A DNA stretch of 63,606 bases, filler included, from Perkinsus olseni (GCA_013115125.1; 7 parts of 7 records of this genome joined end to end with filler, not necessarily neighbours in it); one strand, 5' to 3'. Positions 13,741 to 51,568 are shown, numbered from the whole stretch's first letter. The notes: generated by a model not told the origin, from the sequence alone. Numbers and translations are program-made.

Positions 13741-16700
13741 TAACGTGAGGAAGCTGTAGAAGTTAAGTTCGAGGAATCAGAGACGGTCGAGCGGGCTGGG
13801 AAACAGGGCGTCAGCGAAGATGCGCCGACAGCGGAGCGAACCGATTCACGTTCATCGACTTCCCCGAGCCGCGCATGTCTCAGGCCGAGACTCTCGGCAG
13901 ATGGGCATACCTCTTTCAAGAGACCGCCATACTGGCGGCGCCAGTGATCATTCCTCGCTACTGAAAGAATTCAACTCCTTCAGTTAGACTTCCTTGTAAC
14001 TCCAGAATGGAGGCCGAAAAAGGCTACCTGAACGCTGATGCCGAATCAAGGCATCAGCGGTAGCATCCTTTATTTTCAATGAATATTTTCCATGAAGTCT
14101 ATTGGATTCATCGTCGTAGAATGACCGTAATAACTTCGTCTCCGGTGTCCATTTCTCATGCGATGCGGTGTTACTGACCCCAGTGACTGGGTGGACCCAG
14201 TCGGACTGGGGCCCAGTCGCTTCTCTCGTCCAAAACAAACGCGTTATAGCTCCCGCCATGAATCTACTGCGCCCCCGTATTTCGACGTGGGAATGACGTG
14301 ACTCGTCAATCAACTACATCCTGTTGAGATTCGTTATGGCCGTTATCTAACCGGCTGGACTCCAGCTGCTGAGTACGATCCATTCGAGACCAAGTCAGCA
14401 CCCCGTCATGGAATATAGCCCATAATTCGATCCTATTGGAATTGGAGACTTCAATTTGAAGTAATCTCAACTCGCCTGCGCAGAGGCTGCACTGCAGCCT
14501 CGGTTAAGGCTCAGCCGCTTAGCTAGTAGCGCTAGCGCAGCCCTATGCAAACAATTTGATTTCTTAGGCAGCTGAAATGTATCAGATAGAGCGGTAGGCT
14601 ACCGACATGAACCGGGATTGACTAGCTGCTACCGACGGTAGCAGATGATAATACTTGGGGGATGACACAACATTTTTTTGATGACGTAAAACCGACGCTT
14701 TATACGTATTATACGGTGCGTATACTTGCCAACCTCGTGGGGTTCAAGTTGGAGTGTAGTGAGAAGTGGAGCTGGAGAAGCCAAAGCTACAAGTTTTAGC
14801 CTACAACTAGTAGGCTACTAGTAGTAGCCTACAAGGAGAGCAATTTCTGCCGACTGTAACAAAAGTCAATAGCAGTCGCAGCATGGAAAGAGTTTTCGAG
14901 TGCATGTTCCAATTCAAATTCCAGTAGCTCCTTTCGGAGTTCGGAGCACAGCTCTGTACTCCAGAACGGAGTTTCTGCTGAGGACCAGCACCGAGGAATG
15001 TTTTCCTCGGGACTAGGTGGCAGGTCGTCGCTGTTAGCAGCATCTCTCTTTTCCGAAAGGTGCCCCGCGCGGGGTCTATGGCACTCACAATGCAGACACC
15101 GAGCTCTATTTTGTTCGAGGTTCGCCGTCTCGCAAACTGATAGAGCTACGTGGGTTTGTCTTAATTCAGCCGCTGCTCTTGCTGGACCCGCCACGGTATC
15201 GCCGCGATGACAAACACCAGCATTATGGGCCATCATTTATGGCTTTAGTTAGCAGCCTTATAACCTCTTCATTCAGTCTGAACACACCCTGAATTTTAGA
15301 CCCTGCTACGGGTATCACACTATCATATCCCCGTCACGCCGAACCAACGAATTATAATCCCCACACGCGTTTCTATAGTGCCAAGGTCGGCGGCCGATTC
15401 GGCCGGGCCGAACCGACAAATCATTTTCCTGAGGAGAATTTCGTCCTAGTATAATATTCCAACTGCGATGCGCTGCAAGATAAGTACTCGCGCATTGCCC
15501 GAGAATCACTCGCACTTGTCTACTTCTATCGCGCGGCGCGGACCGAGACATCATATTTCGCTGCTCCCATCAGCCGGGCCGGTTCGGCCCCCGAGTATCA
15601 CTCGACAGCTTCTTGATGAACTGCGAGCGCCTTGGATGCATGCTCCGGCTGCCTGCCTTCGAGAAGCTTCAGAGAAAATGGAACGAATCTAGTCTGGTTA
15701 TGACTTCAAATCACACGTTCGTGAGGATAGTTCTCCGCCATTTCCACAACAAGATTTATCCGGATAAATTAGCAGCGAATACGGCAGTTGTAACGAGCCG
15801 TAACGTCTTCGAGAGCGTGATACTGTATGATCCGAGGTTACTGGTTCAACAGTTTCCATCCACATAGTAAAGGGCTGGATAAAGAATTTTAAGAGAGTCG
15901 TATAGGGTCGTCAAGCCGGCATAGAGCTCGGGGACGTGGCTATCGGAATCTGTTTCGGTGAAGGCGTGAGAGACGACCTCCGTGTATTCGTTCACGACCG
16001 AAAGACATGATTTCACGCCACCATCGCGTTCGTATCGACCTGGCAGGCGTGTCAGACCGCTGGCAGTGCCAGCGGTCTCTCACGTCACGTGAGTCACGTA
16101 TACTCTCCTAGTATACTCTCGGAGAGACTGCTTATTCCCTGTGTGAGTTCTGGCTGGCGTAAAATGAAGTCTGATACGTATACAGCGATTACGCACTCTT
16201 TGGAGCCGTCAGATTTTTTGACGTTCCAGTCGTGCGAGTCATTTCTCGCCCTCAGGTCGCGGATCTCAGTATCGCCGATCTCAGGGAACCCACCATCGGA
16301 TCACCAAAAGCCGAGCGCCGCCGATGTTTAATTTTCGACAGGGCCTGCGGCGCCAAGTACTCAATATTCGGCAATATTAACTATTGCACCCCAGGCTCTA
16401 GGGCCTAGAGCCTGTCATGATCTCGCAGCGAGACTCTCGGTCGCCGATAACCAGACTCACGCGCGGCACAGTGGCGCGTGCAAGAGTAGTCCTTCTTTGC
16501 TCCTTTGATCTTTTCTACAGCAGAATAGTGAGTTTTAGATGGACTGCTTAGGCGTCTACCTCAATCAGAAGAAGAAGTACCGGTTACGTAGTAGGCGCGT
16601 TTAGTTACGAGGCGGAGACAATAGCACAATCGCGTCCGCTCAGCTCGGCGCTTCGCGAGCTAGATAGCAGAGTGCTGCAACCGTTCTGTGGTTGGTCAGT

Positions 16701-16742
16701 GCACATCGTCAGGTTTCGCAGTTTTATTTGATTTTAAACCCA

Positions 16743-16971
16743 TCCCACCCACACCTGCGTTGGAGGCTCTGGTGCGGTTTGTTACCGACCAGGTCTCGCG
16801 GGCCCATCATGCCCTGGCAAGCGCCGTGTCATGTGTATGCGTACCGCTGCCATGATTGCGGCTGACCGATTCGCGTGCCGGTGTCTGACGGACACCGTGT
16901 AGCGTTCGGTGCTTGCCCAGGGTCATGATAGGGCCGCTGCTGATTACCCAAACTTCGCAGGTATGGTTGGA
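16743..16971 (+). ncRNA. Candidate structured RNA, family unknown
   Basis: Closing stem CCACACCTGCG/CGCAGGTATGG, arm 16763-16797, long arm 16798-16826 pairing with 16907-16937, inner hairpin CGGTGTCT-GAC-GGACACCG. Most non-Watson-Crick pairs are G-U on the + strand. Confidence 0.4.
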
Positions 16972-49379: not shown

Positions 49380-49810
49380 GAGGAGTTGCTCCTCAAGAAT
49401 CTGAAGGGTCGTCTGACAGAGAGTGACTGAGGCAAACTCACCCGGAAGATTCTGAAGACGCGGAAGATACTCGCATCGGCTAGCCCTCCGAGGGAGGAGT
49501 CCAGCAAGTAGACGAGGCATTCGACCCTGAAAGGCAGTATTGATATGACGTCCACCAGGCCGAGGAAGGACTTTATGTACCTCCCCCGTCTACAGCCGAC
49601 GAGGGGGTTGGCTGGGGCGCTGTAGAGCCTGGCCAAGTAGTCCACAGTGAAGAGGGTTACCTGAGGGGTAGGTCACAGGGGAGACGAGCGACGCTGCTGC
49701 TGACCGATATAAACTCGAAGTAGTCGAAGAAGGCCTTGCCAATGACGGACAGGATTGCCCCATCGCTCTCTAGGAGGACAGCGAGGATGTTCAACAAGAT
49801 CAATGACTAC
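49380..49810 (-). pseudogene. Voltage-gated ion channel (Ion_trans) S1-S4 fragment
   Basis: LILLNILAVLLES, FEFISVTLFTVDYLARLY, FLGLVDVISILPF, S4 IFRVFRIFR, with short introns. No pore region was found nearby. Confidence 0.65.
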
Positions 49811-51568
49811 TAGATAGGGAATGGTCACTCTCGCCCTAGTCGAAGCGACTACCGATTTTATGGCCAGCTACAGTTGTCGATTGCCGCCCCTAGTATTTAT
49901 GGCGGCCCGTGTGCGCGTCGAGGTTGAGCGAATTCCAACAGAGATCACAAATTAAGATAACGGTTCGGACCATCGTACGATGATCGCTGCTAGCATGAGG
50001 GCAATCGATCCTATCCAGCACCCCTCTGAGATTAGAGAGCTTAAGGCTAGAGGAAAGGGCGAATGCCATAACATTGCTGAACATAACAAGATGCAGAGAA
50101 ACCGAAGTCGACCCCATCGTACCGGACGTTACCCGAGCCGCACCCAACTTGTTTCCGGAAAATCACGACAGCTCTTCTGATATTAGCTCGTCACGTGCTT
50201 TAATTAGGATACTAGTGACAACACAGATCGACTGTCCACATCGGGAATCCATATGTGACCGAACTGATAGGGGTGGCGGACAGGCCTACAGTAATGATCA
50301 AAATTGTCAAAGTCATTGAACTCTTATTCTGTCTACGGGCGATAAACAAAAATCACGGATACTTCACAATGCGTCAAACATGATAACTGCCTTCGAACTC
50401 AACATCAAAACAATCATTGTAATCGCAGCTAGGCGAAGCTGAGCATGCCTAACACAACCACCGAGAAGGCGACGCACACACACTCCCTCGGTGGGCAGTG
50501 GTAGTGTTGCTGGCCGATGTACTTATTACCAAACACACTAGAACAAAGGGGTAGTCGGAAAGAAGAGAACACAGCCCTAGGAAGACTGTAGGTGATACTG
50601 AATGATACGATAAGTGCGCATCTCGCCGTAGCTCAGGTAGAGCTACGACTATTCTGGAAATAATCTACTGTTGAGTTCAACGCGACTCTAACAGTTATAT
50701 AATGCTACAAGTTAATTAGCGCACGCCAGCTCGTATGAAGGTCCTGTTCCGAGGGATTCTCATGACAGTCGGACCCGCATGATAGCTACATGTTTAACGA
50801 CAGGCGCAACCGTCAGCATCGCAGTGACAGCTGAAAGTGCAGTACCAGCACTTACCACCATGGAGCCTGCGCGGTAGGCCACGAAGGCCCTGAGGGATAG
50901 TATCTTCGGTAACGGAGGCCGCCGTAGTAGATGCAGCGAGGATCAGAATGACGAAACGCATTGATACCGGCATGAAAAGGCGGTATCCGCTGAAGAACTA
51001 AAGATACAGAAATGCTCTCGGGCCTTTTCCTCGCGTGAGGTTCGCACGGAGTTGAGTTGTGTTTGCTACTGGTCAGCGACCCAGGGGAGAACAACTCGCT
51101 GTGGCCATACTTTCACAGCTTGTGTCTGGGGCCTATTTCATACTATGAAATTCATAGGATTTCCTGAGTAAGGACGTCTTTAAGTTTAGGATCCTAACCT
51201 TAGGAATCCTTAAGTAAGGACAAGCCATTTCATAAGGTTGTCCTCACTTAACCTTAGGATCCTAAACTTAAAGACGTCCTCACCCGAGCATAAGGACATC
51301 CTTAAAAGACATTTTCAGCACACGTTTCGGCGAAAATGAACATCATAGGGATCGATCCTACGCCCACACGGATGACGACTTAACCCGCTACCGTTAGAAC
51401 ATCTCTCCTACTACTAAAAATTCATTGATGTGCTCAGTCCAGCCGAGGACAACGAATAACGGTGGTTCAACCCGAAGTTGAACTTCAAGCTACTGTACTT
51501 CCCGGGGTCCACTGAGTGGACCCCGGGAAGTACAGTAGCTTGAGTGGACTCCACTCTGAAAACGACAG

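Follow-up and report, generated by a model that had tools for sequence, protein, structure and literature searches.

A fixed 22-nt palindromic scar in Perkinsus olseni DNA, probably the excision footprint of a hAT-type transposon

Introduction

Excision of Ac/Ds, studied in yeast and Arabidopsis, provides a close described counterpart of the subject of this work, a 22-nt scar that recurs in 63,606 bases of DNA from Perkinsus olseni (hereafter the window). We read each scar, with a probability of about 0.72, as the donor-site footprint of one insertion and excision cycle of a hAT-type transposon, joined by annealing at the inverted target duplication. In Saccharomyces cerevisiae, Ac/Ds footprints have arms of up to 20 nt, with arms of at least 3 nt in 47% and microhomology at 88-89% of joints, and in Candida 28 footprint types were counted in 128 excision events (PMC5873905). 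The palindromes have at their centre the complement of the nucleotide that bordered the element (Weil and Kunze 2000, Yu et al. 2004 and Lazarow et al. 2012, cited in PMC5873905 and PMC1978519). The scars share with these footprints the 8-bp duplication, the complement-centred palindromic additions, the long arms known from yeast and the microhomology joints. However, Ac/Ds footprints are experimental, come from one reporter site and are heterogeneous, whereas here a single product containing the whole inverted duplication dominates at dozens of natural sites and survives as a fossil record across the genome.

Tam3 of Antirrhinum and Ascot-1 of Ascobolus reportedly leave inverted duplications of flanking host sequence, which the Coen model is said to explain by hairpins on the flanks that are opened off their tips. 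Such duplications recall the scars, although the lengths and outcomes reported for those elements are diverse, whereas the addition described here is fixed at 14 nt by the length of the duplication. In V(D)J recombination, coding ends are sealed as hairpins by RAG and opened by Artemis; the nick lies exactly at the border, palindromes are even, 1-4 nt are usually added and the ends undergo classical end joining. The hairpin-sealed ends, off-tip opening and palindromic additions (P nucleotides) of that system are also features of the reading given here; in contrast, the palindromes in the window are odd, the tracts are at least 8 nt and joining would proceed via annealing.

The hairpin model itself is that of Coen et al. 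1986 (cited in PMC5873905), and Hermes likewise makes 8-bp duplications, with a preference for nTnnnnAn (PMC10368747). At mPing excision sites, repair is precise and uses microhomology in the target site duplication (PMC4561436). As here, the duplication supplies the microhomology that fixes the outcome; there, however, direct copies anneal and the site is restored, whereas here inverted copies made by hairpins would anneal and 14 nt are added. A genome-wide set of excision sites in rice is, like ours, a collection from a natural genome, but its footprints are mostly deletions with filler DNA (8/94 were 'perfect'), and the text mentions neither palindromes nor hairpins (PMC4423477). In the full text of the literature searched, figures and supplements aside, we found no description of a fixed 22-nt product as the dominant scar of a genome, and the product may exist in experimental records. 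Thus, the chemistry is already known; what our searches did not turn up is a natural genome in which one whole-inverted-duplication product dominates and fills non-coding DNA.

Results

The scar motif and its specificity

The window is eukaryotic DNA and consists of seven stretches of about 9 kb with N44-TTAATTAATTAA-N44 spacers between them. An earlier note on this DNA had listed ten copies of the motif, and all ten have exactly the sequence that it described. Its rule reduces to X[1-7]+revcomp(X)+X[2-8], in which an 8-mer X and its reverse complement (revcomp) give an 8-mer plus 14 nt, 22 nt in all, or two overlapping 15-nt odd palindromes with one central base each. A complete scan found 19 exact copies where 0.0002 are expected, nine of them unlisted before (Table 1). 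They are distributed as 1/4/6/6/0/2/0 over the pieces, so that five of the seven hold at least one, in agreement with the claim that unlinked contigs carry the motif. The density of one per 6 kb given in the note was too low: exact copies occur about once per 3.3 kb and recognisable ones about once per kb.

The 14 positions fixed by the 8-mer also allow degraded copies to be counted. At 0, 1, 2, 3 and 4 mismatches, we observed 19, 12, 16, 24 and 43 matches, against analytic expectations of 0.0002, 0.0098, 0.19, 2.3 and 18.9 and means of 0, 0.03, 0.17, 2.4 and 19.0 in 30 simulated second-order Markov sequences. Once overlapping registers are removed, 66 scars remain at three mismatches or fewer (19/11/13/23 for 0/1/2/3), and the counts by piece at this threshold are 10, 21, 9, 16, 4, 4 and 2. 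As a natural control, 27 unrelated loci from metagenomes (106,206 nt) were scanned; they hold relatives of the triosephosphate isomerase (TIM) protein at no more than 55% identity and gave 0/0/1/7 for the same four classes.

A sharp peak at k=8 had been predicted when the length k of the repeated word is varied, and this is what the scan returned: 1 match at k=5, 0 at k=6, 1 at k=7, 19 at k=8 and 0 at k=9-13. The rule was then generalized to X[1..k-o]+revcomp(X)+X[o+1..k], with duplication lengths k=5-12 and nick offsets o=0-3. Enrichment was confined to k=8, o=1 (19 vs 0.00024 expected); the single k=7, o=1 case (30558-30576) has an expectation of 0.004, all o=0 cells are empty, and k=9 and k=10 at o=1 gave 0. 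Three matches at k=10, o=3 were rejected as a separate class, as they are the scars at 14807, 17107 and 47943 with flanks or palindromes extended by chance.

Insertion, reproducibility and age

One scar can be compared with unoccupied paralogous sites. A head-to-tail array of same-anticodon tRNA-Thr(CGT/TGT) genes with a 173-bp period occupies 31339-31929, and the scar at 31324-31345 sits in the D-arm region of one of its tandem units. In comparison with sister units (three of three), the unit with the scar carries exactly 14 additional nt, in a single gap-free block at the 8-mer, and is otherwise colinear; at this site, the one on which the comparison rests, the scar is a true 14-nt insertion. 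ARAGORN called the three sister genes and did not call the scarred copy; one scar has inactivated a tRNA gene copy.

That the scars arise in sequencing or assembly is barely conceivable. The window does have its oddities, including poly-G and poly-C runs (7597-7839 and 8931-8983) and N gaps. However, six scars were recovered in independently assembled data: Logan contigs of runs X1 and X2, from two studies but possibly from one strain, match 19781-27286 over 7,506 nt with 0 differences and 0 gaps, and this stretch covers all six exact scars of piece 3. The large excess of copies with 1-3 mismatches and the presence of a scar in only one of four tandem tRNA-Thr units also speak against an artefact.

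The same excess (12/16/24 vs 0.01/0.19/2.3) places decayed copies far above chance, and the scars are therefore of many ages, accumulating and decaying. With chance subtracted, the mismatch classes are of roughly even size (19, 11, 13 and about 21), which is what a constant rate of formation with neutral decay would predict. From about 15 scars per class, about 20 mutable positions and 62.6 kb, a rough calculation puts the per-site rate of scar formation at about 0.5% of the per-site substitution rate. The 'massive past transposition' previously proposed is thus not required, since the flat spectrum would fit steady, modest activity.

Palindromes and the range of products

A signature of hairpins that does not depend on the 8-mer rule is also seen. 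With arms of 7 nt or more required, perfect palindromes number 77 with an odd centre and 6 with an even centre, where chance gives about 3.9 of each; the metagenome control has 9 odd and 11 even. Exact scars account for 38 of the 77, and the remainder are halves of decayed scars and longer palindromes, whose arms measure 8-29 nt. Of 38 arms, 25 end at exactly 7 nt; the flanks show no pre-existing complementarity. Perfect arms up to one unpaired central base are what a covalently sealed hairpin leaves, whereas a fold-back primer needs a loop of several bases.

This last point bears on templated insertion, in which the scars would come from polymerase template switching or snap-back synthesis, during replication or during polymerase-theta end joining at ordinary breaks. 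Template switching and snap-back synthesis do create short inverted duplications, and a yeast rad27 study reports template-switch events. However, the process should give variable lengths and needs either priming microhomology or a multi-base loop, whereas the length here is fixed at 8 (19 vs 0-1 at other k), the palindromes are perfect to a single central base and 25/38 arms stop at 7 nt. We regard this origin as very unlikely.

Transib/RAG-type elements make a 5-bp duplication and hairpins placed exactly at the border, with even palindromes, and a footprint of that type was rejected: k=5 at offset 0 gave 0 matches, and even palindromes are at chance (6 vs 3.9). Another superfamily with a duplication of about 8 bp and flank hairpins, such as a Mutator-like element of the Muta1 type (8-9 bp), might leave footprints that are repaired in the same way. 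Muta1 makes 8- or 9-bp duplications and hairpins on flanking DNA (PMC5499845), and with no transposase among the open reading frames (ORFs) of the window (see below), more than one superfamily could be the source. The flank hairpin of Muta1 reportedly measures 43+43 nt, i.e. both full strands, which predicts even-centred palindromes at offset 0, although the gel sizes may not resolve a 1-nt offset; moreover, over 90% of Muta1 excisions in yeast are precise (PMC5499845). In the window, offset-0 motifs are absent at k=5-12, even palindromes number 6 against 77 odd, and there is no 9- or 10-bp class at offset 1. A Mutator-like source is therefore unlikely.

To define the range of products, all combinations of p palindromic bases from a left hairpin and q from a right hairpin were scanned against 10 simulations. 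Only the form with the full 8-nt inverted word was enriched (19 vs 0 in these simulations); with 6 or 7 P nucleotides the count was 0, and the classic 16-nt form was found 3 times (1.2 expected), every time within poly-G. Longer tracts do occur. Outside the exact scars, five of 38 odd palindromes, representing three events, have a second copy of the duplication in the predicted register, where 200 chance trials gave a mean of 0.2 and a maximum of 2. Two of these footprints are complete, at 51485-51556 and 31211-31244, with an inverted tract of 29 nt from the left flank and an inverted tract of 10 nt, respectively; each has the inverted tract, the inverted 8-mer and the second duplication copy, joined via 2 shared bases. 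By their sequence, the palindromes at 36320-36378 (arms 29) and 45281-45333 (arms 26) may be one-sided footprints from which the other flank was lost. The palindrome at 31264-31304 (arms 20), in which no second copy is recognisable, may likewise be one-sided; the original sequence, as in sister repeat units, forms its right arm, and the inverted copy was added as its left arm. Inverted tracts of 10, 20, 26 and 29 nt point to an opening of hairpins that is variable and distal.

A proposed mechanism

In the hAT-type scheme that we favour, insertion of the element would duplicate an 8-bp target X. At excision, the transposase would nick the top strand one nucleotide inside the duplication of each flank, and the freed 3'-OH would attack the opposite strand at the element border, so that both chromosomal ends would be closed into hairpins; at the tip of each would stand the complement of the nucleotide that had bordered the element. 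On the left flank, N1-N7 would then run straight into the complement of N8 and continue on the bottom strand; the right flank would mirror this. Host enzymes would next open the hairpins on their far strands, 8 nt or more from the tip and not always at the same distance, leaving 3' tails that carry revcomp(X) and X. These tails would anneal over 8 complementary bases, their only shared complementarity, after which flaps would be trimmed and gaps filled.

With annealing at the 8-base inverted duplication, the product comes out as X[1-7]+revcomp(X)+X[2-8] irrespective of the site of opening. The stereotypy would thus stem from annealing at microhomology derived from the duplication and not from precise opening, and the single dominant product pointed out in the earlier note finds its explanation in joining at the 8-nt inverted duplication. 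Its proposal that hairpins are opened near the far edge of the duplication is unneeded: the product is identical for all openings 8 nt or more from the tip, and tracts of 10-29 nt occur among the variants. Distal nicking of the Mre11-Rad50/CtIP type, and not tip-proximal opening of the Artemis type, would be a candidate for the opening step, and a microhomology-mediated process, polymerase-theta or single-strand-annealing-like, a candidate for joining.

The transposon itself we infer from its scars. The geometry accords with hAT chemistry in two respects: an 8-bp target duplication is kept on both sides (19 at the k=8 peak vs 0-1 at k=6, 7 and 9-13), and the palindromes are centred on the complement of the element-adjoining base (only offset 1 is enriched, with 77 odd and 6 even). 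To this extent, the hAT attribution made earlier stands, although no hAT transposase, element with terminal inverted repeats (TIRs) or filled allele came to light in the searches described below.

The search for an element and for other alleles

Several results weigh against the hAT-type reading. None of 140 ORFs of at least 97 aa in the 63.6-kb window (the 140 longest among 171 with 90 aa or more, the other 31 being left out) matches a transposase family, and ORF-level domain scans of the window returned host genes only. A strict scan of the window for TIRs with an exact 8-bp duplication gave 3 matches, all of them palindromic 8-mers in the inverted repeat of piece 6, and a relaxed scan gave 1, against 0-1 in 10 simulations. 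No dispersed repeats common to the pieces were found within the window. Nor was a filled or empty allele of another strain seen in contigs of the divergent run X7, which read poorly at scars, being 82-95% alike to the window and indel-rich. X7 records over 25827-26343 have gap totals of 14 and 27 letters and net length changes of -6 and -1, with no clean 14-nt gap. Furthermore, the target logo (T at position 2 in 20/42, A at position 7 in 14/42 and a purine at position 6 in 32/42) resembles the Hermes nTnnnnAn only faintly. Finally, as reported hAT footprints elsewhere are heterogeneous, a near-exclusive single product needs an unusual host repair setting.

Other observations complete this search. 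At 26099-26100, X7 shows C and A, the letters expected of an unscarred site, in alignments that are heavily gapped. Window segments skipped by X7 have no TIR or duplication. Run X9 covers 8 of 30 bins, none with a scar, and a TIM protein query for orthologous loci among metagenome contigs retrieved relatives at no more than 55% identity. The preference for CTAG suspected from the first sites does not hold, with 3/43 sites in a tie with other tetramers.

Two candidates for the element were rejected. The first is the pair of ORFs of piece 6 (45628-54575), an 8.9-kb contig with 267-bp inverted repeats at both bounds (93% identity) and an interior 1.2-kb inverted duplication bearing two paralogous ORFs of 430 and 360 aa that are 75% identical. 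These inverted paralogs have no Pfam match and resemble FUSC/ArAE-type membrane proteins in the atlas, where the nearest cluster consists mostly of Perkinsozoa records (score 0.90), a weak lead only; the long near-identical block between the two ORFs suggests, from its sequence, gene conversion. The second is a 276-bp foldback with arms of about 75 nt (17313-17588), inserted in one unit of a tRNA-Pro array. It was rejected as a filled site, since comparison with intact units shows a duplicated target of about 13 nt and not 8 bp, and it may represent some other small mobile element.

To find some 66 recognisable scars in 63 kb and not one filled site would mean that resident copies must be rare relative to scars, and a low-copy, often-excising element could give this imbalance.

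Distribution of the scars

The scars are strongly clustered. Among the 43 with two mismatches or fewer, 12 gaps between neighbours are shorter than 150 nt and 24 shorter than 500 nt; in 2,000 random trials, the means were 4.1 and 12.1 and the maxima 11 and 21, respectively. Scars touch or overlap earlier ones at 14786-14835, 26877-26921, 31196-31345 and 33689-33809, and two clusters adjoin tRNA arrays; scars and long palindromes concentrate directly upstream of the tRNA-Pro and tRNA-Thr arrays. Domain scans found no recognisable coding domains in scar-rich stretches, which would fit selection against 14-nt frameshifts.

Such clustering, together with some 66 scars and no element, TIR or transposase in 63 kb, would also be accommodated by a nuclease, transposase-derived or otherwise of the host, that makes staggered 8-bp cuts and seals hairpins with no resident element, in which case scars record nuclease attacks. 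However, both copies of the 8-mer survive in the product, each without the base that would adjoin an element, and a filled-in duplication, i.e. a completed insertion, is therefore needed before the hairpins; a simple staggered cut is insufficient. Absence of the element from a 63-kb sample is in itself weak evidence, and we know of no free-standing activity that makes staggered 8-bp cuts and seals them as hairpins. This explanation seems to us quite unlikely.

Other features of the window

The window has tandem arrays of tRNA-Pro and tRNA-Thr genes, the former being a head-to-tail array of tRNA-Pro(AGG) genes with a single anticodon (17585-18188, 156-bp period). A triosephosphate isomerase gene without introns lies at 19452-20228, and ORF-level domain scans identified fragments of MCM, P-type ATPase, CARME and ion channel genes. 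The contigs of public runs in which this DNA occurs add up to 42-59 million letters. At 18472-19357, run X9, filed under a different organism, has a spliced, 100%-identical gene record from which four 43-52-nt GT..AG introns (at 18472-19049) are removed; transcripts of the organism of the window thus occur in a sample labelled as another species. Word depth in X1 and X2 over 18289-18590 is about 15-29 times that of the neighbours, with many loose ends at 18311-18361, which points to a short repeat, present in many copies, where piece 3 begins.

Piece 5 (36571-45527) opens with a (TTA)24 run and has a G+C content of 42-46%, below that of the other pieces; it holds 0 exact scars and only four 3-mismatch candidates, and may be a different genomic compartment. 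The poly-G and poly-C runs mentioned above flank a 10-N gap and have the look of an artefact, from sequencing or assembly, where contigs were joined. A 74-nt stretch that is identical on either side of a 98-N gap (56546-56619 and 56719-56792) is probably a scaffolding duplication.

Table 1. Scars, long-tract footprints, long palindromes and spacers in the window
Feature	Position	Strand	Remarks
Spacers between pieces	9046, 18189, 27330, 36471, 45528, 54576		
1-mismatch scar	5558..5579		
Exact 22-nt scar, unlisted earlier	6778..6799		
Exact 22-nt scar, unlisted earlier	10025..10046		
1-mismatch scar	12594..12615		
1-mismatch scar	13877..13898		
1-mismatch scar	13924..13945		
1-mismatch scar	14441..14462		
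Exact 22-nt scar, 8-mer CTAGTAGC	14807..14828		amid overlapping decayed scars, 14786-14835
Exact 22-nt scar, unlisted earlier	15391..15412		
1-mismatch scar	16079..16100		adjoins odd palindrome with 12-nt arms centred at 16066
Exact 22-nt scar	17107..17128		tRNA-Pro array about 150 nt downstream
Exact 22-nt scar, unlisted earlier	24569..24590		also in independent X1 and X2 contigs
Exact 22-nt scar, unlisted earlier	24647..24668		also in X1 and X2 contigs
Exact 22-nt scar, unlisted earlier	25642..25663		also in X1 and X2 contigs
Exact 22-nt scar	26092..26113		also in X1/X2 contigs; divergent X7 differs at 26099-26100
Exact 22-nt scar, unlisted earlier	26410..26431		also in X1 and X2 contigs
Exact 22-nt scar, unlisted earlier	26900..26921		also in X1/X2 contigs; 2-mismatch scar adjoins at 26877
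Exact 22-nt scar	30271..30292		
Analogous 19-nt scar from a 7-mer (k=7, offset 1), single case	30558..30576		expected 0.004
Exact 22-nt scar	30659..30680		
1-mismatch scar	31142..31163		
Exact 22-nt scar	31196..31217		right edge is the target of the next event
Long-tract footprint, 8-mer ACCCTGAG	31211..31244		odd palindrome with 10-nt arms, inverted 8-mer, second duplication copy; 2-nt join
41-nt perfect odd palindrome, arms 20	31264..31304		
Exact 22-nt scar in D-arm of tRNA-Thr pseudogene copy	31324..31345		internal empty-site test
Three sister tRNA-Thr units without the 14 nt	31493..31912	+	unoccupied reference sites
Exact 22-nt scar, unlisted earlier	33303..33324		
1-mismatch scar	33514..33535		
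Exact 22-nt scar	33689..33710		first of four scars in 120 nt
Other scars of the 33689 group (33761 and 33788 also listed below)	33731, 33761, 33788		2 mismatches at 33731; 1 each at 33761 and 33788
1-mismatch scar	33761..33782		
1-mismatch scar	33788..33809		
59-nt perfect odd palindrome, arms 29	36320..36378		no second duplication copy found
53-nt perfect odd palindrome, arms 26	45281..45333		no second duplication copy found
Exact 22-nt scar	47943..47964		
1-mismatch scar	49008..49029		
Exact 22-nt scar	51136..51157		
Long-tract footprint, 8-mer GTCCACTC	51485..51556		odd palindrome with 29-nt arms, inverted 8-mer, second duplication copy

Discussion

Excision footprints are usually small, varied and hard to recognise, and excision therefore leaves almost no readable trace in a genome. 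The product described here is deterministic, so that each event can be counted and roughly dated by its decay. This would allow long-term rates of transposition and excision, and the choice of targets, to be measured with no element present, and would allow one to ask why insertions cluster, for example beside tRNA arrays and earlier scars. It would also give a readout, from sequence alone, of the pathway by which a non-model eukaryote repairs breaks with hairpin-capped ends. For the genome that carries them, the scars are a steady source of new 15-nt perfect palindromes and of frameshifting 14-nt insertions.

We put forward one further idea tentatively, at less than even odds: that hairpin-sealed transposase breaks in this organism are repaired almost only by distal opening and annealing, so that each hit-and-run visit of a hAT-type element leaves a 22-nt barcode. 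This could come about if the organism lacked, or had little of, tip-proximal (Artemis-type) opening or classical end joining. If this is true, the organism would host a low-copy hAT-type element with fast turnover, and its non-coding DNA would carry about 1 recognisable barcode per kb. Palindromic insertions of 14 nt would then be a major class of indel, with a rate that is, very roughly, 0.5% of that of substitutions per site, and the scars would seed hotspots for further insertion.

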